Below, in pieces: positions 33,650-64,000 of a stretch of 64,000 bases of DNA. The translations under genes and the position numbers were made by a program. The notes beneath the pieces were generated by a model that did not search any database, was not told the DNA's origin, and saw nothing but the letters and a program-made list of their open reading frames with translations. This DNA comes from Candidatus Woesearchaeota archaeon (GTDB lineage Archaea > Nanobdellota > Nanobdellia > Woesearchaeales > JAHWIC01). Location: positions 2,938 to 66,937 of the forward strand of contig JAHWIC010000002.1 in assembly GCA_019322805.1 (NCBI GenBank). Reading direction: 5' to 3'. Positions within the stretch are counted from its first letter, which is position 1. Each line of letters opens with the position of its first letter.

Positions 33650-35288
<1,639 letters not shown>

Positions 35289-42566: not shown

Positions 42567-42914
42567 ATGAAGGAGAAAATACTGCTTAGAACAGCACTAA
42601 TTGTTTCTATTGTGGGCGTTACACTCCTATTTTTTATTTCTGACTTCAGTGAACTTGGAGAAACAGGCATAGAAGAGATAACAATTGACGACTTAGATAA
42701 GAATGTTAAAGTGATTGGAGCTGTTACCAAGGTTATTGATACTGATAAGGTTCTCATAATGGATATTGCCCAACAAGAAGAGTTCAAGGTTGTTGTGTTC
42801 AAGGATAAGAACATCAGCTTGAAAAGAGGTGATTATATTGAGGTTTTAGGGACAGTTGAGGAGTATGAAGGTGAGCTTGAGATTATTGGCGACAGAATAA
42901 GGCTGATTGATTAA
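42567..42914 (+). CDS. Membrane-anchored OB-fold domain protein (hypothetical)
   Basis: N-terminal TM/signal segment then OB-fold-like [12 protein letters not shown]...[17 protein letters not shown]. Confidence 0.4.
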
Positions 42915-47980: not shown

Positions 47981-50050
47981 ATGAAAAAAATAATGTTCTT
48001 AATGTTATTTCTAGTCATGATTCCAATATGCATTTCACAGGATTACTACAGGGCTAAAAACCTCATTATTGAGCTGGATGTAGATTCTGAGTTTCAGATA
48101 ATCCCTAGCTCAGGAGATTATCAGATTAGCTATGTTACTGCAAATCTCTATTTTTTCCCTCGCGATGGATTTAACCAGGATGTGCTTAAATTAACAACTA
48201 CTCCAAAAGCTGAGGAAATTGATGAAAGCATTACATTCAGATGGGACAACCCGCAAGCTGGCAAGCTGGCGTTTAATGTCAATTCCGAGATAATGACTAA
48301 TGATAAAAAGGTTGAGGTAAAAAGCAGGGTAAGGTTTCCTATTACAAGCCTGCCTAATGATGTTTTGCCTTACACTCAGCCGTCTGCAACAATTGACTCT
48401 GATAATATGGATATAATCCTATTGGCTTCAGAGCTTGCTGCTGGAGAGGATGATCTTTATGTTGTTGTGCACAATATTGGCGCATGGGTAAAGAAGAATA
48501 TTGATTATGAGTTAAGCTCGTTAACTACAGGAATAAGCCAGACAGCTTCATGGGTTTTGCTTACAAAAAAGGGAGTGTGTGATGAGATAACAAATCTGTT
48601 CATTGCTATGTTAAGGTCTTTAGGAATACCTGCAAGGTTTATCTCTGGTGTTTCTTACACAGAGCTTATCGAAGGCAACTGGGGCAATCATGGCTGGGCA
48701 GAGGTCTACTTTCCAGGCTATGGCTGGATTCCATTTGATGTTACCTATGGCGAGCTTGGTTATTTAGATCCAACACATATAAACCTGCATGCAGCTATAG
48801 ATGCAGAGGAGTCCTCAACAAAATATCAATGGTATGGCCGCAATGTTGATGTAGTCACCAAACTCCTTGAAACAAAAGTTAGAGTAATGCAGATACGCGG
48901 GGAGGCAGAGCCCAAGATAAGGCTAAACACTATTGCTATAAAAAGTGAGGTTGGTTTTGGCTCATACAACCTTATTGAAACCATTGTAGAAAATCTTGAT
49001 GACAGCTATTACTCTACAGAGCTGCATATATCAAAGCCTGTTGAAGTTAGTGTGTTAGGCGATGAAGAAAGGTTTGTACTTCTAAGGCCGAATGAGCGCA
49101 AAAAGGTTTATTGGGATATCAAAATACCCAGCAGCCTTAGAAAAACAAGCGTCTATACTTTCCCCATTGCTGTCTGGTCTTCAAAAAACTTCAGTTCTTA
49201 CACCAGCTTTAAGTCTTCTTATTTAGATAAAGTTTATTCAGCAAAAGAGATAGAAGATATACTCAACCAGCGGCAGGTAGAGGAATCCAAGGTTTATTCA
49301 AGGAATGTCGGCCTTAGTTGCAGCATTAGTAAGGATGAACTCTACCTTAATGAATACACCTTAGTTGCCTGTAATCTAAAGAATGTAGGAAACGTGCTGC
49401 TCAGAAACATTAGGCTGTGCGGTGGTGATTCCTGTGAAATATTTGACCTTGGAATCTCACAGATGGTCTATAAGGAATACAAAATCTATCCTTCAGAAAT
49501 AGGCTCATTCGAATTTGTTGTAAGGATTGACAGTCCTGATGTCTCAAAAGCAGAGTACATTAAGTATACTGTTCTTGACAAGCCTGTTGTTTCAATAGAA
49601 AACCTGAATTATCCAGATAGTGTTTCATACGGAGATGCATTTTCCGTAGAATTCTCATTGGATAAGGGCTCTTTATCTACGCCGAAGGAGGTTTTTGTAG
49701 AGCTGTACCAGGGCAGTGTACCAAAGGGCTGGCGCATAGATAAGCTTAGCGCAGAGCAGTCATTCAAAGTAAATTTTGACAGCAAAGGCCTAGGATTAAA
49801 TGAGAATGATTTTGAGATAAGAGTCAGGTATAAGGATAATCTAGGCAGGGAGTACCTGGAAACAAAATCATTTAAGGTAATCCTTACAAATGTTCCAGCG
49901 TCGGAAATTCCATTTGTTGCATTAAGATCCATTATAATGAATCTTGGATATATGGATATAAAAAAGATTGTTTATATTTCAGGCGCAGTTATTATTGCAT
50001 TTGTAATTGTTATAATGTACACTGTGAGGGCTGTTGAGAAGAAGAGATAA
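47981..50050 (+). CDS. Secreted/surface-anchored transglutaminase-like cysteine protease domain protein
   Basis: Signal peptide MKKIMFLMLFLVMIPICIS. Transglutaminase core GVCDEITNLFIAMLRSLGIPARFISGV...GNHGWAEVYFPGYGWIPFDVT (Cys-His-Asp). C-terminal TM anchor IVYISGAVIIAFVIVIMY. Confidence 0.7.
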   Translation: MKKIMFLMLFLVMIPICISQDYYRAKNLIIELDVDSEFQIIPSSGDYQISYVTANLYFFPRDGFNQDVLKLTTTPKAEEIDESITFRWDNPQAGKLAFNVNSEIMTNDKKVEVKSRVRFPITSLPNDVLPYTQPSATIDSDNMDIILLASELAAGEDDLYVVVHNIGAWVKKNIDYELSSLTTGISQTASWVLLTKKGVCDEITNLFIAMLRSLGIPARFISGVSYTELIEGNWGNHGWAEVYFPGYGWIPFDVTYGELGYLDPTHINLHAAIDAEESSTKYQWYGRNVDVVTKLLETKVRVMQIRGEAEPKIRLNTIAIKSEVGFGSYNLIETIVENLDDSYYSTELHISKPVEVSVLGDEERFVLLRPNERKKVYWDIKIPSSLRKTSVYTFPIAVWSSKNFSSYTSFKSSYLDKVYSAKEIEDILNQRQVEESKVYSRNVGLSCSISKDELYLNEYTLVACNLKNVGNVLLRNIRLCGGDSCEIFDLGISQMVYKEYKIYPSEIGSFEFVVRIDSPDVSKAEYIKYTVLDKPVVSIENLNYPDSVSYGDAFSVEFSLDKGSLSTPKEVFVELYQGSVPKGWRIDKLSAEQSFKVNFDSKGLGLNENDFEIRVRYKDNLGREYLETKSFKVILTNVPASEIPFVALRSIIMNLGYMDIKKIVYISGAVIIAFVIVIMYTVRAVEKKR

Positions 50051-50105: not shown

Positions 50106-51935
50106 ATGGAGAAGACTGAAAAGATTGTTCCTGACACCTCTATAATAATAGAAGGTTCGCTCTCGCAGAAAATAGCGAAAAAAGAATTTAAGGTCAGCCA
50201 GGTTATTGTTCATGAAGCTGTTTTTGCTGAGCTTGAGCATCAGGCTAACGAAGGCAAGGCAATTGGTTTTCTTGGCTTAGACGAGCTTAAGACGCTTCGC
50301 GAACTTGCTGGCAAACATAAGTTTGAGATTGTTTATGCAGGCAAAAGGCCAAGTGCGCATGAGATTAAGTATGCGAGCTTAGGCGAAATAGACGCTTCCA
50401 TAAGGCAGCTTGCCTGGGAAGAGGACGCTACCTTACTGACTGGGGACCGGATACAGGCAGAGGCTGCAAGAGCAAAAGGAGTAAAGGTCATACTTATTGC
50501 CAAAGAGATTTCTGAAAAAAAGCTAAGGCTTGAGAAGTATTTTGATGAAACTACTATGTCTGTTCATCTGCGTGAAAATGTAGTTCCTTACGCAAAAAAA
50601 GGCATGCCTGGCAAATGGGATTTTGTTGCTTTGGCAAAGAAAACCTTAACACAGGATGAAGTAAAGAAAATCAGCAATGAGATTATTGAGGAAGCAAGAG
50701 TCAGGGATGACGGCTTTATTGAGATAGAAAGGCATCACAGCACAATTGTTCAGCTTGGCAATTACAGGATTGTCATAACTACGCCGCCTTTCTCAGACGG
50801 GTGGGAGATAACTGCTGTAAGGCCTGTTAAAAAGCTGGTTCTTGGTGATTATAAGCTTAGTGAGAAGTTGATGAAACGGGTTGCAGAGCAGGCTGAAGGT
50901 ATCCTGATTGCAGGTGCACCTGGCCATGGAAAGACAACCTTTGCGCAGGCTTTGGCAGAGTTTTATGCTTCAAAAGAAAAGGTTGTCAAAACTGTTGAGG
51001 CTCCTCGTGATTTAGTTCTGCCTGACAGTGTAACACAGTATGCTATTAGCCGGGGAACGCCGCAGGAAATCCATGATATTCTTTTGCTGTGCAGGCCTGA
51101 TTATACAATCTTTGATGAAATGCGCAATACTGCTGACTTTAAGCTGTTTGCTGATATGCGCTTAGCGGGAGTGGGCATGGTTGGTGTTGTTCATGCAACA
51201 AATCCAATTGATGCTATCCAAAGGTTTATTGGAAGAATCGAGATGGGTGTTATACCTCAAGTCATTGATACCGTTGTGTTCATTAAGAACGGCACGATAA
51301 ATGAGGTTCTGAGTGTTAAGATGACTGTAAAGGTTCCATCCGGAATGACTGAGGCTGATTTAGCAAGACCAGTTGTTGAAGTGGTCAATTTTGAAACAGG
51401 AAAGATTGAGTTTGAGATTTACACTTATGGCGAACAGACTGTTGTTGTTCCTGTCAGTGCAAGTGCTGAGAGTGTTGGTGCTCATAAACTAGCTGAGAAA
51501 ACAATTGAAGAAGAGTTTTTGAAATATACTGATAATCCACATGCTGAGGTTGTTAGTGCACATAAGGCAATTGTAAAGGTTCCTGCACGGGACATACCAA
51601 GGATTATTGGCAAACAAGGACAGAATATTGACAGGATTGAAGAAAAGCTCGGTATAAGCATTGACATACAGGAGCTTGGCGCTGTTTCTGGTGGCGAAGA
51701 AAAGAGGAGGAATAAAGAGGCGCAATACGAGTTAAAGGTTAAGAGTAAGTCAGTTAATTTCTTTCTTGACATAACAATGCAAAATCAAGAGTTTGATATT
51801 TATGTTGAGGATGAGTATCTTCTCTCAGCAAGAGCAGGAAAAACAGGAATAATAAAGATAAAGAAAGACAATCCGATTGGAAGAAGATTGATTAAGGCTC
51901 TGCAGTCTGGCGAGAGGATCAGGCTGTTTGGTTAG
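50106..51935 (+). CDS. PIN-domain plus PhoH-like ATPase plus KH-domain protein (archaeal COG1855 'PilT-family ATPase')
   Basis: N-terminal PIN-like fold (VPDTSIIIEG...LTGD). Walker A GAPGHGKTTFAQALA. C-terminal KH-like region (RIIGKQGQNIDRIEEKLGISIDI). Confidence 0.6.
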   Translation: MEKTEKIVPDTSIIIEGSLSQKIAKKEFKVSQVIVHEAVFAELEHQANEGKAIGFLGLDELKTLRELAGKHKFEIVYAGKRPSAHEIKYASLGEIDASIRQLAWEEDATLLTGDRIQAEAARAKGVKVILIAKEISEKKLRLEKYFDETTMSVHLRENVVPYAKKGMPGKWDFVALAKKTLTQDEVKKISNEIIEEARVRDDGFIEIERHHSTIVQLGNYRIVITTPPFSDGWEITAVRPVKKLVLGDYKLSEKLMKRVAEQAEGILIAGAPGHGKTTFAQALAEFYASKEKVVKTVEAPRDLVLPDSVTQYAISRGTPQEIHDILLLCRPDYTIFDEMRNTADFKLFADMRLAGVGMVGVVHATNPIDAIQRFIGRIEMGVIPQVIDTVVFIKNGTINEVLSVKMTVKVPSGMTEADLARPVVEVVNFETGKIEFEIYTYGEQTVVVPVSASAESVGAHKLAEKTIEEEFLKYTDNPHAEVVSAHKAIVKVPARDIPRIIGKQGQNIDRIEEKLGISIDIQELGAVSGGEEKRRNKEAQYELKVKSKSVNFFLDITMQNQEFDIYVEDEYLLSARAGKTGIIKIKKDNPIGRRLIKALQSGERIRLFG

Positions 51936-53629: not shown

Positions 53630-54217
53630 ATGGGTGATATTATGAGAACGCTAGATGAACAGGAAATAAAGATTGTCAGGGAATTAATAAGGAATCCAAG
53701 GATATCTGATAACCAGCTCAGCAAGAAAACCAAGATTCCTGTGATGAGTGTTAACAGAAAAAGGAAGAAGTTGGAAAATGAAAATTTGCTGTATTATTTT
53801 GCCTATCTGAACAAGGGGAATGCAAAAACACATATCTATAAAGCAAGACAGCTTTACATAATACAATTCAAGATTGGAATTACCAGGGAGGAATATTTAA
53901 AGGCAATAGAGGAAGACAAGAAGTTTCAAGAAACAAACGCAAGGTATCATGCAAATTCTTTTTTAGGCGAGAAGGAAGGCCACCTAGCATTGGCAATTAT
54001 ACTTGAAGCAGAAAGCCAGTCTAAGCTTATTGATGTATTTAACGGGTATGTGATCAAGGGCCTAAAAGATAGGTATGGTGATGATTGTATAAGCAAAATT
54101 AACACTATAAGATTGGACCTGCCAATAAGGCTGCACCACAATTATTTGCCAATAATGAATATGGAAAACGGCATTATAAAAGAAGACTGGCTGGATGAGT
54201 GGATCTTTGTCCAATAG
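53630..54217 (+). CDS. HTH (Lrp/AsnC-type winged helix) domain transcriptional regulator with uncharacterised C-terminal domain
   Basis: LDEQEIKIVRELIRNPRISDNQLSKKTKIPVMSVNRKRKKLENENLL is an AsnC-type HTH. The upstream region is AT-rich with TATA-like tttatatac. Confidence 0.5.
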   Translation: MGDIMRTLDEQEIKIVRELIRNPRISDNQLSKKTKIPVMSVNRKRKKLENENLLYYFAYLNKGNAKTHIYKARQLYIIQFKIGITREEYLKAIEEDKKFQETNARYHANSFLGEKEGHLALAIILEAESQSKLIDVFNGYVIKGLKDRYGDDCISKINTIRLDLPIRLHHNYLPIMNMENGIIKEDWLDEWIFVQ

Positions 54218-54223
54218 CAAGAT

Positions 54224-54919
54224 CTAAAACACATCAACCTTTTTTGGATCTATCCTTATTCCTTTATCAGATATCTCTAAATCGATTGTTTTTTCTGGTA
54301 TTCTTGTGCCCCTCATCTTTAATATTTCAATAGCCCTTTTTCTTATTCCCTTCTGTTTAAAATGATAAAGAAGTATTATGCTGTCAGTCTCAAATTCAAG
54401 TGCTGTTGAAATAGTATGTCCATCTTTTGACTCATCCTGGGATGTCAGCACACCAGTGCAGTTCCATTTATTAATAAGCTCGAATAATGCTAAAGCAGCC
54501 TCTTTTTTTGTTAACTCATCTTCATACAGCAAGGAAAAAGAGGTTATAGAATCTATGACTATGCGCTTTGCTTTAATTTTTTCAATGACAGACTCAACTA
54601 TGCCTCCGCCTTCTGTTAAGACCTTCTTTACCTGCTCAGGGGTATATTCTAAAAAAACAAATTTTCCTTGTTTTTCATACTCGGCAAGGTCCCAGCCAAG
54701 CTTTAACATATCCTCATAAACCTTTTCCTTTCTTTCCTCAAAGGTCATATAGATTCCAGGCTCATTCTTCTTGATACCATCAATAATAAACTGCATCCCA
54801 AAGATAGTCTTGCCTGTTCCAGGGCCGCCGGCCACTAAGTTAATGCTGTTTTTTTTAAAGCCGCCTTCTATTAAACCGTCCAGATTTGGGATGCCTGTAG
54901 AAATTCTTCTTATCATCAT
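54224..54919 (-). CDS. KaiC/RecA-superfamily ATPase (FlaH/ArlH-like)
   Basis: GIPNLDGLIEGGFKKNSINLVAGGPGTGKTIFGMQFIIDG Walker A. ~230 aa single KaiC domain. Confidence 0.7.
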   Translation of the reverse strand: MMIRRISTGIPNLDGLIEGGFKKNSINLVAGGPGTGKTIFGMQFIIDGIKKNEPGIYMTFEERKEKVYEDMLKLGWDLAEYEKQGKFVFLEYTPEQVKKVLTEGGGIVESVIEKIKAKRIVIDSITSFSLLYEDELTKKEAALALFELINKWNCTGVLTSQDESKDGHTISTALEFETDSIILLYHFKQKGIRKRAIEILKMRGTRIPEKTIDLEISDKGIRIDPKKVDVF

Positions 54920-55644
54920 TTGAATCTTTTCGTATCTTTCTCTATTAATGAAAAAGGAATCTGTTGAGGGAATATCTTTACGCCCCCATTCCCTATTTTA
55001 AAAGGGAATAGATCTATTGAGTGGTCTTGGCCCCTCATTTTGTATACTTGAGCACAATGCTCGAAAGAATGGCCCTTTCTTATTTTTGTCAAGATGATTA
55101 ACCCTTCAAACAAAAAGTCTTCTGGCTTGTAATGTATCTCGTCTATATTTGATATAGATTTTTCAGACACTGCCAGTAAAGTAACTTTCGCCTCTTTCAT
55201 CTTTAACACAAAATCCAAGACCTCTTTTCTGTAGTCCATTTCTCCTGAAAGGTGCATGTATTCAAATAGGGTTATGGAATCCAAAACAACCCTCCTTACT
55301 TTTTTTGATTTGATTATAGACAAGGGGGTGGCTATTGACATTAGTTTTTTTGGTTGAACTGGCTGTTGTACCAGGGTTATTAGGCCCTTTTTTTCATATT
55401 CTTTCATATCTAAGCCCAAGGCTTCTGCATATGACCTTACATCTTCCACTGTTTCTTCAGAAGTGATATATATTCCTGCTTCACCACGCTTAGCTCCCTC
55501 AACAATAAACTGTATTGCCAGTATTGATTTCCCACTACCCGGAGGACCAGTAACCAAAACAGAGGCCCCTTCCCTCATTCCTCCTTTTAATACTTCATCC
55601 AGACCGGAGATTCCTGTTTCTATTTTCTTTATCACTAAAATCAC
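54916..55644 (-). CDS. KaiC/RecA-superfamily ATPase (second tandem copy)
   Basis: GISGLDEVLKGGMREGASVLVTGPPGSGKSILAIQFIVEG. Overlaps the downstream paralog by 4 nt. Confidence 0.7.
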   Translation of the reverse strand: MILVIKKIETGISGLDEVLKGGMREGASVLVTGPPGSGKSILAIQFIVEGAKRGEAGIYITSEETVEDVRSYAEALGLDMKEYEKKGLITLVQQPVQPKKLMSIATPLSIIKSKKVRRVVLDSITLFEYMHLSGEMDYRKEVLDFVLKMKEAKVTLLAVSEKSISNIDEIHYKPEDFLFEGLIILTKIRKGHSFEHCAQVYKMRGQDHSIDLFPFKIGNGGVKIFPQQIPFSLIEKDTKRFK

Positions 55645-55760: not shown

Positions 55761-56345
55761 TTGGTTTTAGGTAAGATGGCAAGAATAAAGGAGGAATTCG
55801 AAAAAAAACTCAAGGATTTAACAGAATATGTGGCGCTGGCTACTGTGAATGCTAATAAATACCAGAAAACAAATCTAGGGATTATAAAGCATTTGACTGA
55901 CAAGAATGTTCCTGGTGTTTATGTTACCTTAAACAAGCCATTTGAAACTATGCAGAATATTTTTAAGAGGCAAAAGATTGGTACCGAGATTATCATATTT
56001 ATTGATGCTGTTACCCAAACAGCTGGGGGAGATATTGAAAAAACTGATAAGTGCTTATTTATAGGCTCTCCAGACAACCTAAGCGATATATCTATTGCAA
56101 TGGATCAGGCTGTTAGGGCCTTGCCGACTAAAGAAAAATTTGTTTTCTTTGATTCTTTATCAACGCTTCTGATGTATAATAATGTAGAAACAGTGTCCAG
56201 ATTTATCCATTTTCTTGCTGGAAAGATGAGGGTGTGGAAGGTTAAAGGCATAATCGTCTCATTAAGAAAAAAACAGGATAAAGAATTGATTGATGCCTTG
56301 ATGCAGTTTTGTGATGTTGTATTAGATTTTGATAAAAAAAAGTAG
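55761..56345 (+). CDS. KaiC/RecA-fold-like protein with degenerate P-loop (predicted inactive)
   Basis: Beta-strand/Walker-B-like FVFFDSLSTLL and GIIVSL pattern with KaiC-like topology, but no GxxxxGK[ST]. Confidence 0.35.
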   Translation: MVLGKMARIKEEFEKKLKDLTEYVALATVNANKYQKTNLGIIKHLTDKNVPGVYVTLNKPFETMQNIFKRQKIGTEIIIFIDAVTQTAGGDIEKTDKCLFIGSPDNLSDISIAMDQAVRALPTKEKFVFFDSLSTLLMYNNVETVSRFIHFLAGKMRVWKVKGIIVSLRKKQDKELIDALMQFCDVVLDFDKKK

Positions 56346-56375: not shown

Positions 56376-56852
56376 TTGTATGTTAAAAAAGAGGTGTTTT
56401 CAATGAAGAAAGGACTTGGCACAGTGCTTGGGCTTATAGCTATTGCAGCAGGGTTAGTAGCTATTTTCAGGATTGTTGTTGATACTGAAGTGGCAGTTGG
56501 TTTTGTGACTATCTCATTTGGGATATTAGCTATAATATGGACCTCAATGGCCACTGGCTCATTATCAAAAGGTTCTTCTTTGAGAAGACATACTGTCAAT
56601 TTCCTGTTTTGTTTGGTGTTTGTACTATTGTTCTCGATATGGCATACCTTATCAAAGCTGTTCAAGTGGAGGGAGACAGTTAATGAATTTATGTTATACC
56701 CTGGTTACTTGTTTCTTATCATGGCTTTCCTGATATTTGTAATAACATCTTATCAGATTCTTACTATGGGCCAAGAATTTGGGTTCGGACAGCAGGCAAC
56801 GAAAATAAAGGGTATCATCAAAGAGAAGAGGAAGAAAAAGAAGAAAAGCTAA
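56376..56852 (+). CDS. Small 4-TM membrane protein (hypothetical)
   Basis: Four hydrophobic segments and a K-rich C-terminal tail. Start possibly at 56403 (MKKGLG). Confidence 0.35.
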   Translation: MYVKKEVFSMKKGLGTVLGLIAIAAGLVAIFRIVVDTEVAVGFVTISFGILAIIWTSMATGSLSKGSSLRRHTVNFLFCLVFVLLFSIWHTLSKLFKWRETVNEFMLYPGYLFLIMAFLIFVITSYQILTMGQEFGFGQQATKIKGIIKEKRKKKKKS

Positions 56853-56854
56853 GA

Positions 56855-57673
56855 TTACCCTAACAGGCCGCCAAGCATATTTCTTATTGTGAATCTGATC
56901 AGAAAAAAGATAGCTAGACTTGAAGCTACTAGTATGGGTATAAACTTTATTCCATCTCTTTCTTTTCCTTTGTATATTAAGCCAAGTATCAAGGAACCCA
57001 GAACAGAGGATGTCATCAAAAATACTACAGAATATCTTATTACAAAATGAATGCCAAGGCTAACTTCTGAGAAGCTTATTGGCATGGAGGTTGTCAAGGC
57101 AGTCTTAGGTACATCCAAGGCTTGTAAATTCATTGTTAGAACCTCAACCAAAAAGGTGCCTAATCCAAATAACAAAGGTGCTCCAAAACAAACAGCAGCA
57201 AATACAAATATAACATACATCATTACATTAGCCCTTATCCTGCCATCAACAAGCCCTTGCTGCCTTAGATTCCTGGCTGTTTGTTCTAATAAAGAAGCCA
57301 GTTCGCCTCCTGACCTTAGCCCAGAAACTACGAGCTCCATGGTTTTGCTTAATCGTTCTGATCTAATCCTTTGGGTCATGTCCAACAAAGCCTTGCCGAC
57401 TTCTGCGCCCATTGTGATCTCTTTTCCTATGCGATTTATTTCATCCTGAAATGGCCCAAACTCAGGCCTGGCTGACAGCAGTAAAGCCTTGTCAGTAGTT
57501 AAACCTGCCCTTAGATTAGATGTCATCAGCTGCAGAACATCCGGCAGTATACCCTCAACAAATGTTGCCTTTGCATCTGCTCTTAACAGTAATATAAAAT
57601 AAACGAGAATTTGGAATAAAAAGAAAATCCCAACAACAGAAAGCAGAAAAGGGACTTCAACAAACAAAGCCAA
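56855..57673 (-). CDS. Type II secretion system F-domain membrane protein (TadC/FlaJ C-terminal-half-like)
   Basis: T2SSF-like cytoplasmic domain (FGPFQDEINRIGKEITMGAEVGKALLDMTQRI...LSKTMELVVSGLRSGGELASLLEQTA) flanked by TM helices. Confidence 0.65.
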   Translation of the reverse strand: MALFVEVPFLLSVVGIFFLFQILVYFILLLRADAKATFVEGILPDVLQLMTSNLRAGLTTDKALLLSARPEFGPFQDEINRIGKEITMGAEVGKALLDMTQRIRSERLSKTMELVVSGLRSGGELASLLEQTARNLRQQGLVDGRIRANVMMYVIFVFAAVCFGAPLLFGLGTFLVEVLTMNLQALDVPKTALTTSMPISFSEVSLGIHFVIRYSVVFLMTSSVLGSLILGLIYKGKERDGIKFIPILVASSLAIFFLIRFTIRNMLGGLLG

Positions 57674-57828
57674 ATAGAATGTAATTGTTAATGCCAGAAG
57701 AAAACCAAAGGAAGTAATAAACCCAACAAACCTGTGGGGGTTTAGTTGGATATTGGAATATCTTAACAGCTTAACATAATCCTCCCTAATCTTTTTCGGG
57801 TAAAATTTCGCTAAAGATCTGTATATGT

Positions 57829-58728
57829 TTATTCCCCAAGTAAATTTGGCCTTTTCGATTTTATTACCCCCATAAACATTAACTGAAAGAAAATAATAAC
57901 AGCATATAGACCCCAGAATATCATCTTTGTAATTTTCCCTGGCATAGACACAAATGAAGACAATATAATTAAGAATGTGGTGCCTAAAGAGGGCATTATT
58001 ACAACCAGCAGCATATAAAACATCGCAAGAGGGTTAAGCTGGCTTCCATATCTCTGTATTTGAAGGACCTGCTCCTCTGACAGCAGATTGATGGTCTCAT
58101 TTATCACCCTGGACATATCAGCGCCTGATTTCATGCCATTGACAAGCTGCCATACAGCCCTTCTGAAAAACAAGGAAGGGTTGGTAGCTGCCATTTCCTC
58201 TAAAGTGTGTACCTGGGAGCTGCCAGCATTTATCTCCTTAACAGCCCTTGAAAATTCTTTAGAAATCTCTCCATAATCACCTTTTGATATATTAACCAAG
58301 ATATCGAACAAAGGAACCCCTGAATTAAGCTGGACCAATATATTCTGCAGGGCAGCCATTAGGTTTTTTTCTATGCCTCTCACCCTTCTGTTTACAAACA
58401 TCTTTGGGTACGCTAACTGCTGCAAAAAAGCAAAGATAGTCAGAAGAAATGAGGCTGTTAATGCAAATGAAAGGAATTTTTCAACACCAGCTGAAGCCAG
58501 GATAACAACAAGGAAAAAAGCAAAAAAGACAAAAAAAATGATGCTTGATAAAAAACACATGCTTAGATATTCCTTAGCTGAAAAATCAACCTCTGCCTGT
58601 TTTAGGCTTATTTTTAAAAAAGGGAAGAAATCCTGCAGGGACTCCCCAACTCCGAGAAAAGAATAGGATAACTTCTTCAAAGTTTTTGGCGGCAATAAGG
58701 AATAAGGCAATTTAAACATTGAAATCAC
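57829..58728 (-). CDS. Type II secretion system F-domain membrane protein (TadB/FlaJ N-terminal-half-like)
   Basis: T2SSF-like domain (LQNILVQLNSGVPLFDILVNISKGDYGEISKEFSRAVKEINAGSSQVHTLEEMA) plus TM segments. It is separated from the downstream T2SSF ORF by a 155-nt gap. Confidence 0.65.
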   Translation of the reverse strand: MISMFKLPYSLLPPKTLKKLSYSFLGVGESLQDFFPFLKISLKQAEVDFSAKEYLSMCFLSSIIFFVFFAFFLVVILASAGVEKFLSFALTASFLLTIFAFLQQLAYPKMFVNRRVRGIEKNLMAALQNILVQLNSGVPLFDILVNISKGDYGEISKEFSRAVKEINAGSSQVHTLEEMAATNPSLFFRRAVWQLVNGMKSGADMSRVINETINLLSEEQVLQIQRYGSQLNPLAMFYMLLVVIMPSLGTTFLIILSSFVSMPGKITKMIFWGLYAVIIFFQLMFMGVIKSKRPNLLGE

Positions 58729-58737
58729 GTATAGACA

Positions 58738-60249
58738 TCAACTTCCCAGCAGTTTGTCTGGTTTTGCGTTTTTATTTACCATATCTATCACAAAGTCAGG
58801 ATCAAGATAATAAAGATTTATTATCCTGCCAACATCATCCAGGCTTCTGATATTATTCTTAACTAAATAATCCAATATCTTCTTTTTGGTTTTTAGATCA
58901 TTATTTATTTCTGCCTGGCTTAGGCCGGTATGCCTGCTTAGCTCCTCAAACAGCCTCGTTGACTGGGAGTGTTGAACAATAGTGTCGTTAGACGGCTTCC
59001 ACCTGTAGAGTATATTTGGTTTGACTGCAATGCCTCCAGATTCTTCTGATGCAATGAATTCCCCTATCTGGTGGGTCCTCCTTATGCCGCGCCTGCGCTC
59101 CCTAAACATCACAACATTCAGGTTAACTGCTCCAAGCAGATTTTTTGGCACGCTTATTGGAGGGTTGGTTAATCTCTGGATGGTCTCGTTGATTGAGTCA
59201 GCGTGAACAGTAGCGTAAACACTATGGCCGGTATGCATTGCTTCGAATAAGACCTCTGCTTCTTCCCTCCTTCTCATTTCTCCCAAAATTACCCTGTCAG
59301 GCCTCATCCTAAGCGAGTTAATCAACAGGTCAAGCATTGTAACTTCTCCTTTTCCTTCCGGGTTTGGCTGTCTGGTTGTCAGAGGGCACCAATACAGAAA
59401 TTTAGGAAGCTGCAGCTCGCGCGTATCCTCAATGCTTATCAGCCTATGATTCGGCGGCATAAAAACCATGCAAACGTTCAGGAAAGAGGTCTTGCCAGAG
59501 CCTGTGCCTCCGCTGATTAGTATATTCATCTCGTATTGTATTGCCAGCCAGATTAAGGCAAATATCTCAGAGCTCGATGTTTTATTTGCAATGAAATCTG
59601 TTACAGTCCATGGGTCACGGGCAAATTTTCTTATTGTGATTGAATTGCCTTTATTTGAGATCGGATAAAAAACAGCATTTGCCCTGTCACCAGTTATCAG
59701 GTGCGCGTCAAGCAAGGGGTTTAAAACAGTTATCTGCCTGCCAACACGCCTGGCAATTGTATTGGAAAAGTTTTGGATTTTCTCTTCCTTATCAATTGTT
59801 ACGTTTGTCTCTAACCAGCCATGCTTTTTATGGTATATCCTTACAGGCTCATCTGCAGAATTTATGACAATCTCCTCTAGGTTGCCATCATTCAACAGGA
59901 ATTCAATCTCACCAAAACCAAGCATTTCATGCAGCAGGGTTCCAATTAAAAATGTCTTAGTTTCTTCTTTTATTACCGGCAATTTTCCTTTTAATAGCTC
60001 AGAAGCCTTTTCCTTAAACTTCTGCTTTAATGTGTCCATGACCTTTGGGTCTAATATCTCAGCTGCACTTACCTTTACCTCTACAATAAGCTGGCGCCTT
60101 ATCTCATCAACCAAGGCCAGAGTAGGTTTGCTGAGCTGCGGCACAATAATATTATACCGCCCCATTTTTCCTTTCTCTTTAACTATGTTTATATCTACAT
60201 TTACGCCATCAGCTTCTACTTTGTATTTCTCAATTCCTTCTGCTGCCAA
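58738..60249 (-). CDS. FlaI/TadA/VirB11-type secretion ATPase (type IV pilus / archaellum assembly ATPase)
   Basis: Walker A ISGGTGSGKTSFLN, Asp box, Walker B LISIEDTRELQL and His box HTGHSVYATVHADS. Confidence 0.85.
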   Translation of the reverse strand: MAAEGIEKYKVEADGVNVDINIVKEKGKMGRYNIIVPQLSKPTLALVDEIRRQLIVEVKVSAAEILDPKVMDTLKQKFKEKASELLKGKLPVIKEETKTFLIGTLLHEMLGFGEIEFLLNDGNLEEIVINSADEPVRIYHKKHGWLETNVTIDKEEKIQNFSNTIARRVGRQITVLNPLLDAHLITGDRANAVFYPISNKGNSITIRKFARDPWTVTDFIANKTSSSEIFALIWLAIQYEMNILISGGTGSGKTSFLNVCMVFMPPNHRLISIEDTRELQLPKFLYWCPLTTRQPNPEGKGEVTMLDLLINSLRMRPDRVILGEMRRREEAEVLFEAMHTGHSVYATVHADSINETIQRLTNPPISVPKNLLGAVNLNVVMFRERRRGIRRTHQIGEFIASEESGGIAVKPNILYRWKPSNDTIVQHSQSTRLFEELSRHTGLSQAEINNDLKTKKKILDYLVKNNIRSLDDVGRIINLYYLDPDFVIDMVNKNAKPDKLLGS

Positions 60250-60261
60250 AGTTCTTACCTC

Positions 60262-61167
60262 TTATTGTCGGTTATTCTTGGCTTTAATCTCTTTGGTATC
60301 AATCTTAATTTTAATTAATTCTGGTTCCCCTACAGCGGGATAATGCAATTTTAGCAGGTCATGCTCTTCTAAAATTGCTGCCCAATCCTCTATCTTCTTT
60401 CTGTCAACACCGAAATATTTGGCCATAACAGACAATTTTACCTTGCCGCTTTTCTCTACCATTCTATGCAAAGCATCAAGATAGGTCTCATACCTGCCAA
60501 GCGCTATTTTTCTTGGCTGCGGTGATTCTTTAGGGGCAGATAATACTTTTGACAAGATAAATTTGTTTCCTCTCTCAGGATTTTTTTCTATATACGATTT
60601 TGACTGGGCTAATGACCTATACGATACATCTCCTCTGGTAGACCTAATAAAATAATAGGCATGTGTTGTGGCCATTATAGCAAGTATTATGGTTATTACC
60701 AACATGCCTGTCTGAGTTGATAGTTTTGGTAAATTAGGTATTTCAACAGACGCAAAACCGACAATTGAGGAGGTTTCTGTGAACAGAAAAACAATGACCA
60801 TTATTGACAAAACCCCTAGAAGATATATGCTGCGTTTGACTATCTTTTCAGACATGTATGAGCTAATCAGTCCTTCAGTAAGGTCTTTATCATAACCATG
60901 CTTGATAAGCGCTTCTTTGATTGAATCAAGACTGTGGCCTTTATCAAAATTCCTCTTTATATACTCCCTCAACTTCCTTACAGTATGCTTAGAAAGGTTT
61001 GCCTCTTTTCCAACGCTCTCATTTACCTCAGCTGGTTTCTCTTTGCTGTTCTTTTTTATTGAGGAGTGCCTAACTGGTTTTTGTTTTTTGTTCTTTTTTA
61101 TTGAAGAAGGCCGAGTTGACTTCCCTTTCTTGCTTGCCTTTTTCATCAGGCTCCTTTTTTTAGCCAT
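60262..61167 (-). CDS. Hypothetical membrane protein with K-rich N-terminus, first gene of the pilus operon
   Basis: MAKKRSLMKKASKKGKSTRPSSIKKNKKQK..., central TM helices and a C-terminal soluble domain. No family recognised. Confidence 0.35.
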   Translation of the reverse strand: MAKKRSLMKKASKKGKSTRPSSIKKNKKQKPVRHSSIKKNSKEKPAEVNESVGKEANLSKHTVRKLREYIKRNFDKGHSLDSIKEALIKHGYDKDLTEGLISSYMSEKIVKRSIYLLGVLSIMVIVFLFTETSSIVGFASVEIPNLPKLSTQTGMLVITIILAIMATTHAYYFIRSTRGDVSYRSLAQSKSYIEKNPERGNKFILSKVLSAPKESPQPRKIALGRYETYLDALHRMVEKSGKVKLSVMAKYFGVDRKKIEDWAAILEEHDLLKLHYPAVGEPELIKIKIDTKEIKAKNNRQ

Positions 61168-61375
61168 TTTAGTTACATGAGTTTATATTTACGACTAGGT
61201 GGATATTAAATATTAGTCTATCCTTTTTAAACGTATGTAGTAACCTTCTGATAATAAATATTAATCTGGAGGTAGTATAATTAAGTTTAAATATCATGTA
61301 AAATTTGTTATATAAAAAAATGAAAAAGTGTCAGAAATTTTATAAACTGACGCTTTATTTAAAAAAAGGTGACGT

Positions 61376-61822
61376 ATGAAAAAAATTTCTGAGCAAGTTA
61401 GAAAGCTTTGCTTTCAAACTAGGGGTCAGATTAGTATGGAGTACATGATTATTGTTGGTATTACTACCTTTGTTGCTATTTCTTTACTTGCGATATCCCA
61501 TTATTATTCCAGAGAAACAGAGGAAACAATAAACACGCAGCAGATAGACCGGGTAGCAAAAGAAATCGTAGATACTGCAGAATCGATGTATTATTACGGA
61601 GAGCCTTCTAGGACTACTGTTAAGGCCTACCTGCCTGACGGAATAAAAGAAGTCACTGTTGGCCCTGATGAGCTTTCTTTCAGAGTCATAACACAGTCCG
61701 GCGAGACAGACATGTTTTATCCCTCTTCTGTTAACCTGCAGGGGAATATATCTGCATCTTATGGATACCATCATATAACAATAGAAGCAAAAGAGGGTTA
61801 TGTATGGATAAATTCCACCTAA
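61376..61822 (+). CDS. Class III signal peptide (archaeal type IV pilin-like) protein
   Basis: ..TRGQ|ISMEYMIIVGITTFVAISLLAI is a prepilin peptidase-type signal (basic-G-Q then hydrophobic helix). Preceded by an AGGTGA RBS. Confidence 0.65.
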   Translation: MKKISEQVRKLCFQTRGQISMEYMIIVGITTFVAISLLAISHYYSRETEETINTQQIDRVAKEIVDTAESMYYYGEPSRTTVKAYLPDGIKEVTVGPDELSFRVITQSGETDMFYPSSVNLQGNISASYGYHHITIEAKEGYVWINST

Positions 61823-62196
61823 AGTCTCAGGCAGCAATGGAATTTATGATTCTAGCAGGGGTTCTGCTTTTTATACTCACAATAATGTTGGTAGTTGTTG
61901 CAAATAAAACAACCTACATCAACCAAAAAAAGGAAGTTATGCTTGGGGAAGATGCTGTAACTAAAGTACAAAAAGAGATAAATCTCGCTGCTCGTGTTTT
62001 AGATGGCTATTCCAGAGAATTTACGCTTCCACAAAAAATCAGCAATAAAGACTATAACATTTCAATAGTAGGAAATGAGGTCATATTAAGTACAGAGGAA
62101 CAAGACTTCTGGAGGGTAATTCCCTCTGTGGTTGGAAATATTACTAAAGGAAATAACAGGATAAACAAAACAAATGGCATTATCTATCTCAATTAA
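61804..62196 (+). CDS. Class III signal peptide pilin-like protein
   Basis: ..KSQAAMEFMILAGVLLFILTIMLVVV. Confidence 0.6.
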   Translation: MDKFHLKSQAAMEFMILAGVLLFILTIMLVVVANKTTYINQKKEVMLGEDAVTKVQKEINLAARVLDGYSREFTLPQKISNKDYNISIVGNEVILSTEEQDFWRVIPSVVGNITKGNNRINKTNGIIYLN

Positions 62197-62683
62197 GCGC
62201 AAGTCTCAAATTTGGAGCCTTGACCTTATGGTAGCTGTCTTAATATTTTTATGCGCATTACTTATTTTTTATAAGTATAGCATTAATGTTATAGATGTTG
62301 AAGAACAGGGTGTTGAGCACTTATTGCTTGATGCAAAACTCATCTCAAGTTATCTGGTTTCTACCGGCTATCCTGAGGACTGGACTGCTAGTAATGTGAC
62401 CCTAATTGGTTTAACTAATGGAGAGATAAGGCTAAGCAAAGAAAAGGTCCAGCAATTTTCAAGTCTCGCTTTATCTGATTACACGAACAGCAGAAGGCTC
62501 CTCTCAACAATGAATGATTACTACATATCCTTCGAAGACAAGAACGGCAGTTTGTTTGAAATTGAGGGCATATCTTCCATAGGCAAGGACTACTCAGCTG
62601 AAAATCCTGATAATCTGATTAAGGTAGAAAGGGTTGTTATTTACAATTCAAGCATAATAAAATTAATGGTGCACGTATGGTAA
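62174..62683 (+). CDS. Class III signal peptide pilin-like protein
   Basis: ..KRKSQ|IWSLDLMVAVLIFLCALLIF. Confidence 0.55.
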   Translation: MALSISIKRKSQIWSLDLMVAVLIFLCALLIFYKYSINVIDVEEQGVEHLLLDAKLISSYLVSTGYPEDWTASNVTLIGLTNGEIRLSKEKVQQFSSLALSDYTNSRRLLSTMNDYYISFEDKNGSLFEIEGISSIGKDYSAENPDNLIKVERVVIYNSSIIKLMVHVW

Positions 62684-64000
62684 AAAAAGGGGTTTTTTTT
62701 AGCATAGACGCTTTGATAGCAGTCATCATTATCCTATCTGCTATTATTTTTATCTCTGTTTTTTATATTAACAAGCCATCAACTAGCCAGCAGGTATATT
62801 TCTCTTCAGACCTTGTTCAGATATTATCTACAATGAAGATAGGGGAAATCAATGACCCTGCTGTTAGAACCATGCTAAATGAGAGCAATATAACTGAACT
62901 GAACAGGACTATCTTAGAGCAAACCCTAAGGTTCCAGGTAGGAGGGAGGGAGGATGAAGCCAGTGAGTTAATAAACCTTACAATAGGTAACCTTGTGCCG
63001 GATTACTATAATTTAGGTGTTTGGATTGAGGGTTTTGAAGAGCCTGTGTATGCTACAAGCCAGGAACCAGTAACCCAGCTTATATCATCAAAACAGCTGG
63101 TTTCTGGAATAGAGAAAGAAAAGGCAGTAGAAGGGCTGGCTTCCCGCGCTTTTCTATCAGGTATAAATGAAAGAACCAGCTCTGCTTATGCGTATTTTGG
63201 CGGATATGAAGGAGATGGAAATATAACAAAGAAGGTAACCTTGCCTGGCGGTTTAATCTCTATAGATTATGCATATATGGAGCTTGATGCTGGCGGAGAG
63301 TTTGACTTACATATCAATGGTATTAAGTCAGGGCATTACACACCAGCGCAGGATATGAGGGCAGACGAATGGGTGATAAATTCTTCTTGTCTTAGCAATT
63401 TTCAAGAGGGAGAGAATACAATAATATTTTCATTTAATGGAACAAAAAAATATATTGGCGGTGGTTATTTAAGGGTGGATTACACTGCCTCTGAATTAAT
63501 ACTTTACGAGGATATAGGGACAGAGAGATATTATTTTCCAGGAATAGATGGGATTATTAATGTTTATTCCTCATTCTATGTTCCTGGAAGCCTGGATTCT
63601 ATGAACATTCATCTGCATTATGAAAGTGATTATGAAACATTCATGAACATAGGAGGCATAACAGTTTATAGTTATGAGTCTTCTGGAGAAAATACAGTCG
63701 ATATTCCGGATGAAGAATTAAGCCTGATAATCAATTATTCCAGCCTAAGCAACAAAACAGTTCCAATAAGGATAGGGCTTGTAGCAGCAAACCTGAGTGA
63801 GGTAATTGGGCAGGGTGATGTAGATGTAGTTTTAATCACAGACCTTTCAGGAAGTATGGAGTATCGCTTAGATTCTGATGTTGATGGGATAGCAAGGAAC
63901 TGTTCAGACCCTCTTATCTATGAGGCATCAACAAAAAGAGTTTCTTTAGCAAAATGTCTTGATAAAGATTTTATTGATACTATCCTGCAGAGCACAAGAA
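62677..64000 (+). CDS. Large pilin-like protein with class III signal peptide and von Willebrand factor A (vWA) domain. The C-terminus is beyond the window.
   Basis: MVKKG|VFFSIDALIAVIIILSAIIF N-terminus. Near the window end, DVDVVLITDLSGSMEY is a MIDAS DxSxS motif of vWA domains. The ATG overlaps the preceding pilin stop. Confidence 0.6.
   Translation, partial: MVKKGVFFSIDALIAVIIILSAIIFISVFYINKPSTSQQVYFSSDLVQILSTMKIGEINDPAVRTMLNESNITELNRTILEQTLRFQVGGREDEASELINLTIGNLVPDYYNLGVWIEGFEEPVYATSQEPVTQLISSKQLVSGIEKEKAVEGLASRAFLSGINERTSSAYAYFGGYEGDGNITKKVTLPGGLISIDYAYMELDAGGEFDLHINGIKSGHYTPAQDMRADEWVINSSCLSNFQEGENTIIFSFNGTKKYIGGGYLRVDYTASELILYEDIGTERYYFPGIDGIINVYSSFYVPGSLDSMNIHLHYESDYETFMNIGGITVYSYESSGENTVDIPDEELSLIINYSSLSNKTVPIRIGLVAANLSEVIGQGDVDVVLITDLSGSMEYRLDSDVDGIARNCSDPLIYEASTKRVSLAKCLDKDFIDTILQSTR

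Follow-up and report, generated by a model that had tools for sequence, protein, structure and literature searches.

The region studied here most likely carries a chromosomally native and apparently intact type IV pilus (T4P) locus of Woesearchaeota, provisionally of the archaeal Epd-like or 'euryarchaeal' kind. It lies in a window of 64,000 nucleotides (Candidatus Woesearchaeota archaeon, GCA_019322805.1, contig JAHWIC010000002.1, forward strand, 2,938 to 66,937), and together with 8.7 kb beyond the window 72.7 kb were examined in total. A sequence-only reading of the window had proposed that an ATPase, two platform genes with one T2SSF domain each and a tandem row of class III signal-peptide proteins make up a type IV pilus locus. 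Profile searches with Pfam and NCBIfam bear this out, and every ORF noted there exists with its proposed domain. The same reading had supposed a DPANN lineage. This origin is confirmed by the window's archaeal rRNAs, by an identical 901-aa protein that NCBI lists under 'Candidatus Woesearchaeota archaeon', and by the Woese- or Nanoarchaeota source of all of the 80 best genome loci. The window also matches two other public assemblies at 100% identity. The features are listed below, with a slash at the processing site of each pilin.

54224..54919, minus strand: KaiC-family single-domain ATPase, 231 aa (Pfam KaiC, E = 1.4e-59)
54916..55644, minus strand: second KaiC-family ATPase, 242 aa (Pfam KaiC, E = 6.9e-53)
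55761..56345, plus strand: DUF7504, KaiC/RecA-like protein, 194 aa, or 189 aa from ATG 55776
56376..56852, plus strand: small polytopic membrane protein with several hydrophobic segments, 158 aa, or 149 aa from ATG 56403
56855..57826, minus strand: platform protein matching the C-half (TadB/TadC-like), with a single T2SSF domain; 323 aa
57829..58728, minus strand: platform protein matching the N-half, with a single T2SSF domain; 299 aa if started at GTG, 296 aa if at ATG 58719
58738..60249, minus strand: pilus assembly ATPase of archaeal FlaI/PilB/GspE2 type, 503 aa
60262..61167, minus strand: Lys-rich membrane protein heading the motor operon, two TM helices and a C-terminal cytoplasmic winged helix
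61168..61375, no strand: divergent intergenic region, AT-rich, with TATA-like boxes read from the sequence
61376..61822, plus strand: minor pilin p1, 148 aa, R-G/QISMEY, Class_IIIsignal, FlaFind-like motif, one N-terminal hydrophobic helix
61804..62196, plus strand: minor pilin p2, 130 aa, K-S/QAAMEF, weak DUF7266 match (E = 4e-6), N-terminal helix
62174..62683, plus strand: minor pilin p3, 169 aa, K-S/QIWSLD, weak DUF7287 match (E = 0.0065), N-terminal helix
62677..64000, plus strand: modular pilin-like adhesin, N-terminal 441 of 901 aa, K-G/VFFSIDA, open at the window end and stopping just past 'DLSGS'

Motor genes and their neighbors

The best 80 loci of 260 species genomes encoding a relative (species-level genomes) were surveyed. 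The order Lys-rich protein, ATPase, N-half and C-half, as separate ORFs wherever visible, is found in all 80 loci inspected, and a locus with 75% identity (L004/L006) and 11 more genomes repeat the gene order. The assembly ATPase gene adjoins the platform, with the two T2SSF genes directly downstream, as is characteristic of archaeal T4P. The ATPase, predicted to be hexameric and of FlaI/PilB type, matches Pfam T2SSE (E = 2.8e-34) and, weakly, PilB3_C. It scores 296 bits with NCBIfam FlaI (below the cut-off of 550), and in the PDB it matches A. fulgidus GspE2 with 263 bits, FlaI with 198 and CpaF with 166. By sequence, it is nearest to archaeal GspE2 and FlaI. The gene for the Lys-rich protein is directly upstream of that for the ATPase in 64 of the 80 loci. 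Its AF2 model shows a disordered stretch (residues 1-55), a helical domain (60-89), two TM helices (94-140 and 149-177) and the winged helix (229-290); Foldseek finds generic wHTH folds only (E about 0.01), and the C-terminal domain has 826 relatives.

The two KaiC genes form an operon pair because they overlap by 4 nt. The best PDB matches of the 231-aa protein are KaiC and archaeal PH0284, not FlaH, and the 242-aa protein scores 163 bits with KaiC and only 35 bits with FlaH (4YDS). KaiC relatives adjoin the pilus core in 54 of the 80 related loci, and an association of KaiC with archaeal T4P is documented (PMC4858521). The 231-aa ATPase probably regulates the pilus motor or serves it as an accessory NTPase. 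The DUF7504 protein (Pfam DUF7504, E = 2e-11; KaiC, E = 3.3e-6) has no evident Walker A motif (GxxxxGK[ST]) in its sequence. Its gene is present in 34 of the 80 loci, always paired with a small membrane-protein gene. The small polytopic membrane protein found here gives no family match in Pfam or NCBIfam; its gene is convergent on the platform genes and co-occurs with DUF7504 in 32 of the 80 loci.

Small pilins and the putative vWA adhesin

The divergent intergenic region would act as a promoter, and a GGTGA ribosome-binding site lies 5 nt before the ATG at 61376. The three tandem class III signal-peptide proteins that had been proposed downstream (148, 130 and 169 aa) have both the N-terminal helix and the motif, which is conserved in orthologues. 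In p1 the match to Pfam Class_IIIsignal (E = 4.7e-5) reaches 23.6 bits against a cut-off of 23.7, and the motif [KR]G/Q[IV]SxE[YF] is broadly conserved among 12 orthologues, while [KR][AGS]/QxAxEF and K[SAG]/QxWxxD are mostly kept in orthologues of p2 and p3, respectively. The vWA gene, for which sequence past the window end had been called for, is complete there at 901 aa (L001, 10504-13209) and is followed by three more pilin-like genes, a fifth pilin-like gene (p5) and two tandem major-pilin genes (K-G/QAAMEF). The major pilin is small (152 aa), duplicated and highly conserved, and its N-terminus QAAMEFLMTYGWAILVVL is almost invariant across orthologues. Each of the seven pilin-like proteins starts with a short basic stretch and has a [KR][GAS] site and a single hydrophobic helix, the marks of a class III signal peptide. 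Five of the seven have Gln at +1, and four of these five also have Glu at +5 as in Epd-like pilins (QISME in p1, QAAME in p2 and the major pilins); p3 has Q+1 but Asp at +6, and the vWA pilin and p5 lack Q+1. The combination of +1 Gln and +5 Glu (QxSxE) is the signature of EppA substrates (PMC4371748). Because no prepilin peptidase (Peptidase_A24) is encoded within the 72.7 kb examined, pilin processing depends on a gene outside that stretch.

The large pilin had been credited with a vWA MIDAS motif, and its AF2 model (pLDDT 86) indeed shows a vWA fold at residues 382-635, with the MIDAS motif DxSxS...T...D, joined to a pilin-type N-terminus. This is the composition of a modular pilin or tip adhesin. 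The top Foldseek match is the bimodular vWA pilin PilB of Streptococcus sanguinis (7BA2, E = 1.1e-12), and the best PDB matches are all pilus adhesins (PilB, PitA, Mfa5, SpaC, RrgA and GBS104); numerous vWA domains are also among the Foldseek matches. Among 71 homologues four MIDAS residues never vary (D389, S393, T486 and D516), and S391 hardly does. Because the protein's own match to Pfam VWA is below threshold (E = 0.01), the assignment is based on the model, on the MIDAS motif and on the homologues, of which 528 were found, many with Pfam VWA or VWA_2. The N-terminal helix (K-G/VFFSIDALIAV) is conserved in orthologues, and variants carry lectin (ConA-like inserts) or Ig-like modules. By model and sequence, the MIDAS of the vWA domain is intact and conserved and is a predicted metal or ligand site, and the fold is like those of known pilus-tip adhesins.

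Similarly, PilB of S. sanguinis joins an N-terminal pilin module to a vWA domain with complete MIDAS (Raynaud et al. 2021), and its lectin pilin PilC is paralleled by the ConA-like inserts in relatives of the window protein. However, sequence identity is 14-15%, and the window protein carries a class III signal of archaeal type and lacks the bacterial N-methyl-Phe motif. It is also much larger, the additions being a helical domain, a beta-sandwich region and beta domains at the C-terminus, and its vWA domain has a Cys-rich insert.

It is unlikely that the main task of the pilus is not adhesion but DNA uptake, whether for natural transformation or for nucleotide scavenging. The Epd pilus of Methanococcus maripaludis has this role, DPANN genomes are reduced, and among the window's products are an OB-fold protein with a TM anchor (42567-42914) and a member of the TctA family (44591-45802). 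However, none of the 80 related genomes has a TctA or OB-fold gene within 10 kb of the pilus locus, and there is therefore no conserved linkage. Moreover, the conserved MIDAS and the lectin and Ig-like modules of the variants suggest that the ligands are proteins or glycans; adhesion and DNA uptake can in any case coexist.

A platform encoded by two genes

By alignment, one platform protein corresponds to the N-half of a FlaJ/PilC protein and the other to its C-half. The N-half (Pfam T2SSF, E = 3.3e-15) aligns to residues 5-249 of the 555 of ArlJ/FlaJ, and the C-half (E = 3.1e-14 for the ORF 56855-57673) to residues 263-478 of the 484 of UpsF; the ArlJ family score is 36 against a cut-off of 550, and the two genes share 22% identity. 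The sequence-only reading had put the two T2SSF proteins at about 280-300 aa, taken the gap at 57674-57828 as a possible frameshift, and considered the split a possible pseudogenized FlaJ. The actual C-half has 323 aa (56855-57826) instead of about 272, and the supposed gap codes for its 5' end, where homologues start with M-Y-R. The pseudogene is refuted by the conservation of the separate genes among 588 C-half homologues and 80 loci, and the same letters are found in the two other assemblies. Nearly all of the 120 C-half homologues listed are 321-331 aa long with about 100% query coverage, and every related locus with a complete copy has the N-half as an ORF of its own, about 292-346 aa long. 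The halves are never fused in the 80 species-level genomes and are separate wherever both are visible; the stop-NN-start junction between them is kept in relatives, and there is no frameshift.

The view that separate T2SSF genes are a bacterial pattern and unusual for archaea is also outdated. Two platform genes in archaea are documented in EpdJ/EpdK of M. maripaludis and in clades 1 and 2 of Makarova, who with coauthors notes a pair of tadC-like genes in many loci of clade 2, and DPANN islands with two platform genes have been shown (Makarova 2019, Fig. 2A). Two adjacent single-T2SSF platform genes are a feature of the Epd-like clade (Denise et al. 2019; defined in PMC6668835), and two single-domain platform genes were likewise already documented in bacterial Tad systems.

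In the junction alignment, the start position of the C-half reads ATA (57826-57824; I-Y-R) where relatives have ATG (M-Y-R), and the ATA is present in the two other assemblies as well. By sequence, expression of the C-half is not guaranteed. A decaying locus, in which the C-half has lost its start codon (ATG to ATA), is untranslated and no pilus is made, would account for an ATA at a conserved ATG position, and the next canonical start (TTG 57673) would cost the first transmembrane helix. Nevertheless, decay is very improbable: past the ATA the reading frame is intact and stop-free for 51 codons, which share about 76% identity with the closest homologue, the remaining genes of the pilus locus are all intact, and a distantly related genome (L012, 64% identity) has the same ATA, 2 nt past the upstream TAA. 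The ATA shared with L012 therefore suggests tolerated initiation, for example by termination-reinitiation coupling at a near-cognate codon.

Relation to known systems and proposed function

Close parallels are found with the Epd pilus of M. maripaludis and the Epd-like clade (Denise et al. 2019; Pohlschroder & Esquivel 2015). Both they and the Woesearchaeota locus have one FlaI-like ATPase with two adjacent single-T2SSF genes, a small major pilin besides several minor ones, Gln at +1 and Glu at +5 behind the K/R-G site of pilins, and a KaiC/FlaH-family NTPase nearby. Unlike Epd, the Woesearchaeota locus lacks an EppA gene in cis and its motor operon is headed by the Lys-rich winged-helix membrane protein; its large adhesin has a vWA domain, whereas the clade 1 adhesin has DUF2341. 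The weak PilB3_C signal of the ATPase is clade-2-like, and placement in the Epd-like clade rather than in Makarova clade 2 is tentative. In the Haloferax volcanii systems of clade 2, the 'euryarchaeal' T4P (PilB3/PilC3-PilA, PilB4), KaiC-family neighbors also occur; the matches here to PilB3_C, DUF7266 (p2) and DUF7287 (p3) are all below gathering thresholds, and haloarchaeal pilins have PibD-type sites without the +1 Gln of the Woesearchaeota pilins.

A pseudopilus-type secretion or bindosome-like system, positioning surface proteins with no extended pilus, is highly improbable. Many minor pilin-like proteins are present and the ATPase partly matches the bindosome ATPase BasE, but at 143 bits, far under the cut-off of 1000; no substrate-binding proteins with class III signals occur at the locus, and the duplicated, highly conserved small major pilin is as expected of a filament.

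Resemblance to bacterial Tad/Flp (type IVc) systems is also evident: the ATPase is followed by two platform genes from fission of a two-domain ancestor, p1 and the major pilin share the Flp-like processing motif G/XXXXE[YF], and small pseudopilins accompany a large vWA pilin-like protein (in Tad systems the pseudopilin TadG). However, no Pfam families for the secretin RcpA/CpaC, the ParA-like ATPase TadZ/CpaE or TadD were found among the locus genes, nor Pfam TadE or Tad (TadG-N) matches, and the ATPase is closer to archaeal proteins, with GspE2 ahead of CpaF. The order also differs, being ATPase, N-half, C-half here; in the alignment of Denise et al., TadC matches the N-half and TadB the C-half. 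The earlier choice of an adhesion pilus over an archaellum stands, with no archaellin, FlaF/G, FlaH-proper or FlaC/D/E/X gene within the 72.7 kb and only weak FlaH matches of the KaiC-like proteins. Despite an ATPase resembling FlaI and CpaF and a Tad-like pair of platform genes, an archaellum (motility) operon, refuted by gene content and by the subthreshold FlaI score, or a horizontally acquired bacterial Tad locus can practically be dismissed, the locus being conserved across DPANN.

For the Epd-like pilus favored here, prepilins would first enter the membrane and be cleaved after [G/A/S] and before Gln+1 by a presumably EppA-like peptidase whose gene lies elsewhere. Assembly would be primed by the minor pilins together with the vWA pilin, which would finish at the tip, with the major pilin polymerized beneath them by the ATPase via the two-protein platform. 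The motor is probably regulated by the adjacent KaiC-like ATPases and the DUF7504/membrane-protein pair, and the MIDAS site would bind a ligand on a surface or host cell. The Woesearchaeota pilus cluster fits a pattern already described for archaea, and its pilus may serve in host attachment.

The split platform of the pilus motor

The window contains an archaeal 16S-23S rRNA operon, and its final 11.8 kb is 100% identical to contigs in two other public assemblies (ENA ERZ27275891 and Logan SRR14699988). To place the pilus locus among its relatives, one genome per GTDB species was scanned with the second (C-half) platform protein, and a relative was found in 260 genomes. We inspected the loci in the best 80 of these, to which every count out of 80 below refers. 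All 80 genomes are Woese- or Nanoarchaeota MAGs, and a protein identical to the 901-aa pilin of the locus carries the NCBI name 'VWA domain-containing protein [Candidatus Woesearchaeota archaeon]'; the rRNA operon, this name and the relatives therefore uphold the DPANN lineage that had been proposed from the sequence. The 16S rRNA match (33650-35286) spans 1637 nt against a 1478-position model, so that it probably carries insertions. The '23S rRNA-intervening sequence protein' family (PF05635) is represented by a gene for 133 aa at ~38744-39145, ~150 nt 3' of the 23S rRNA match.

The ORFs and their domain assignments show that the type IV pilus locus is real, with every ORF present as the sequence-only reading had listed it. 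The genes of the motor operon are as follows.

Motor operon of the pilus locus
60262-61167, minus strand: Lys-rich winged-helix membrane protein
58738-60249, minus strand: FlaI/PilB-type ATPase; Pfam T2SSE, E 2.8e-34; PilB3_C weak
57829-58728, minus strand: T2SSF platform, N-half; one T2SSF domain; ArlJ/FlaJ positions 5-249 of 555
56855-57673 as first listed, minus strand: T2SSF platform, C-half, 323 aa when extended; one T2SSF domain; UpsF positions 263-478 of 484

The ATPase scores 296 bits against the NCBIfam FlaI model, under its 550-bit cut-off, and among solved structures it comes nearest to A. fulgidus GspE2 (263 bits), followed by S. acidocaldarius FlaI (198) and Caulobacter CpaF (166). 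Its orthologues in several related genomes are 1000-1400 aa long (L065, 6895-8457; L028, 6949-8559; L054, 5799-8438; also L038 and L076) and are interrupted near residue 276 or 305 by one or two inteins that carry LAGLIDADG homing endonucleases; the ATPase of the window has no intein.

The two platform proteins share 22% identity and, judged from their matches, together are a FlaJ/PilC-type platform divided into collinear halves. It had been suggested that the split might instead reflect a frameshift in a pseudogenised FlaJ, with a gap between the genes at 57674-57828. However, the downstream frame runs without a stop as far back as the upstream gene's stop codon, and the supposed gap is the coding 5' part of the C-half gene. 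The extended 323-aa translation has 588 homologues; of the 120 listed, almost all have a length of 321-331 aa with ~100% query coverage, and their M-Y-R-F-L-A start aligns exactly with I-Y-R-S-L-A in the window. At the DNA level, the junction of stop codon, two bases and ATG between the platform genes is conserved in related loci. Moreover, wherever the contig allows in the best 80 of the 260 genomes, the order of Lys-rich protein, ATPase, N-half (~292-346 aa) and C-half (~321-402 aa) is kept as separate ORFs, and a fused platform gene is found in none of them. Together with the identity of the window to the other assemblies, these results refute the frameshift or pseudogene; the conserved lengths, junction and separate ORFs argue that the split is an ancestral, selected feature of the clade.

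One peculiarity lies at the junction itself, where ATA replaces the conserved ATG start of the C-half gene (57824-57826, minus strand), 2 nt past the upstream TAA. Expression of the C-half may be lost through this change, and the next canonical start would remove the first TM helix of the protein. The ATA is nevertheless reproduced in both other assemblies, the 51 codons after it are intact and conserved, and the same codon in the same context, 2 nt after TAA, occurs in L012 (~4439), a distantly related Nanoarchaeota MAG whose protein is only 64% identical. Near-cognate initiation or termination-reinitiation coupling is thus probable at this site, and an ATA 2 nt after the upstream stop may serve as a start codon via translational coupling in these archaea.

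The pilin operon and its vWA pilin

We read the divergent pilin operon past the end of the window with the identical contig L001, which also completes the vWA protein at 901 aa. A seryl-tRNA synthetase gene comes after the operon.

Products of the pilin operon in gene order, with processing site (arrow)
p1, 148 aa: R-G↓QISMEY
p2, 130 aa: K-S↓QAAMEF
p3, 169 aa: K-S↓QIWSLD
vWA protein, 901 aa: K-G↓VFFSIDA
p5, 321 aa: K-G↓MYFT
Two near-identical tandem genes, 152 aa each: K-G/A↓QAAMEFLMTYGWAILVVL
Small TM protein, 70 aa: processing site not applicable

In all pilin-like proteins the N-terminus is short and basic and is accompanied by a single hydrophobic helix at that end, and the cleavage-site motifs are kept across 12 genomes with the same cassette, with G, A and S alternating at position -1. 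The 152-aa protein is the likely major pilin, since its N-terminus hardly varies across 25 loci. Gln at +1 with Glu at +5 resembles the Flp motif G↓XXXXEY. The same combination is the signature of EppA-processed Epd pilins (PMC4371748), those of the EppA-dependent pilus of Methanococcus maripaludis.

None of the pilins matches the archaellin family in Pfam. Archaellin, FlaF/G, secretin, TadZ, TadD and Peptidase_A24 are likewise not found in the window plus 8.7 kb; an archaellum and a bacterial Tad system thus both fail on their defining features, in agreement with the earlier view that the locus is not an archaellum. A scan of all called genes in 72.7 kb for the GxGD-plus-hydrophobic motif and Pfam labels also found no prepilin peptidase in cis, and this enzyme would therefore have to be encoded elsewhere.

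Fold and motif both support the proposal that the large pilin is a vWA adhesin. Pfam VWA gives a sub-threshold match (E 0.01) to the protein of the window, and many of its 528 homologues have VWA or VWA_2 matches. In an alignment of 71 sequences, D389, S393, T486 and D516 never vary and S391 hardly does, which amounts to a complete MIDAS motif. An AlphaFold2 model of the 901 aa has a pLDDT of 86.

Regions of the vWA pilin in the AlphaFold2 model
Residues 10-28: N-terminal helix
Residues 38-103: helical region
Residues 112-369: beta-sandwich region
Residues 382-635: vWA alpha/beta domain with Cys-rich insert
Residues 650-900: C-terminal beta domains

A Foldseek search of the PDB with this model ranks first the S. 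sanguinis protein PilB, a minor pilin with a bimodular vWA architecture (7BA2/7B7P, E 1e-12), followed by ITIH1 and then by the pilus-tip adhesins PitA, Mfa5, SpaC, RrgA and GBS104. By analogy with PilB (PMC8179133) and TadG, we infer a tip location and a ligand for the vWA pilin. The family (850-1630 aa, lectin-insert variants included) is conserved in Woese-, Pace-, Aenigm- and Nanoarchaeota, and larger members among its relatives of 1150-1630 aa (P0131, P0134, P0150, P0206 and others), including those of 1300-1630 aa, bear ConA-like lectin modules (Laminin_G_3, 3-keto-disaccharide-hydrolase-like) apparently inserted within or beside the vWA domain, which suggests diversified ligand specificity.

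The divergent p1-p2-p3-vWA-p5 cassette is present in only 12 of the 80 loci. In most of the others the cassette is co-directional and combines the same major pilin with a p3-like pilin and a long p1-like modular pilin (300-640 aa), which in some cases has Ig-like domains. The Lys-rich winged-helix protein, the ATPase and the two platform genes are constant across cassettes, and the two cassette types beside the same motor indicate that one constant motor works with alternative adhesin sets. This variation matches the modular evolution described for archaeal type IV pili.

The membrane partner of the ATPase and other neighbours

The Lys-rich gene lies directly upstream of the ATPase gene in 64 of the 80 loci. 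A word-indexed search with its product recovered only 6 relatives; an exhaustive search recovered 826, all sharing only the C-terminal domain of ~75 residues to which wide conservation is limited. In the model, a disordered Lys-rich tail precedes a small helical domain, two TM helices and, at the C-terminus, a winged-helix domain, and because there are two TM helices both termini are probably cytoplasmic. Foldseek gave generic winged-helix matches alone (E ~0.01), no Pfam match was reliable (DUF2226 appeared for 3 of 30 relatives), and the winged-helix domain is without a Pfam family. Its consensus is ...YETDxDxLYKI...EEWAxILEEHxLxxIHYPAxGEPEL (relatives P0288, P0302, P0353 and P0392), and it is C-terminal in hundreds of archaeal proteins, membrane or DUF2226-containing, that otherwise have little in common. 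The Lys-rich protein could, we propose, serve the ATPase as a scaffold or regulator in the membrane.

Two KaiC-family ATPases, each of a single domain, lie downstream of the platform genes in 54 of the 80 loci. Both are much closer to KaiC/PH0284, so that their identity as FlaH is ruled out; an association of the KaiC family with archaeal type IV pili has been described (Makarova et al. 2016, PMC4858521). In 32-34 of the 80, a small polytopic membrane protein is also found there, together with a DUF7504 protein (P-loop-less, KaiC/RecA-like, with no matches in the PDB) as its pair. The Lrp-type HTH gene beside the locus (53630-54217) adjoins it in 0 of the 80 related loci, and a scan for bacterial sigma-70 promoters and terminators gave counts near chance expectation, such a scan being uninformative for an archaeon. 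Farther from the motor lie two genes on the plus strand.

47981-50050, plus strand: transglutaminase-core protein, 689 aa, with signal-like N-terminus and C-terminal TM anchor
50106-51935, plus strand: PIN / PilT-like ATPase / KH protein

As the closest relative (L004/L006) is the only one in which they adjoin the pilus locus, both are probably unrelated to it.

DNA uptake is a possible additional role of the pilus. In M. maripaludis, Epd pili mediate natural transformation jointly with a TctA-like protein and an OB-fold protein that has a TM anchor (PMC10133366), and similar genes lie 11-14 kb from the locus, 1.7 kb apart.

42567-42914, plus strand: 115-aa protein with one TM helix and an OB-fold
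44591-45802, plus strand: TctA-family membrane protein

However, in the 80 related genomes the 10 kb around the pilus locus contain no such genes, so that neither the linkage nor DNA uptake itself gains specific support.

Known architecture and host attachment

Separate T2SSF genes had been taken as a bacterial pattern, which does not hold. M. maripaludis needs EpdJ and EpdK, together with EpdL (PMC4371748); two tadC-like genes occur in clade 1 and many clade 2 loci of archaeal pili (Makarova et al. 2016, PMC4858521); Epd-like archaeal pili share the fission of a two-domain platform gene with bacterial Tad (Denise et al. 2019, PMC6668835); and DPANN pilus islands with FlaI, TadC, TadB and unannotated pilins have been drawn (Makarova et al. 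2019, PMC6393860). The locus belongs to a widespread DPANN form of the Epd-like or clade-2 type IV pilus of archaea, whose architecture, including the two-gene platform, is already in comparative-genomic surveys, and current views are not overturned. What is modestly new is that the predicted fold identifies a conserved modular pilin of archaea with a vWA domain, similar to PilB/TadG, that the ATPase has a conserved membrane partner with a winged helix, that adhesins come in two alternative cassettes, and that ATA recurs at a coupled start site.

A speculative reading, which we hold rather doubtful as a whole, is that the vWA pilin family would correspond, in archaea, to the modular tip pilins of bacteria (S. 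sanguinis PilB/PilC, Tad TadG) and, shown on an Epd/Tad-type pilus, would be the primary host-recognition device of these DPANN archaea, with the swapping of two pilin cassettes on a constant motor setting host or substrate range. Little is known of how DPANN archaea attach to their hosts, and pili-like filaments have been seen joining ultrasmall cells to hosts in groundwater (PMC7906910). The putative vWA tip pilin is confidently modelled and could be expressed and tested for ligands. The locus adds archaeal examples to the 'modular pilin' concept, hitherto catalogued for bacteria, and to the Epd-Tad evolutionary link. For host attachment in DPANN archaea, the locus offers a concrete, widely conserved candidate apparatus, in which exchangeable adhesin cassettes are combined with a constant motor that comprises the ATPase, the split platform, the KaiC module and the winged-helix membrane protein.
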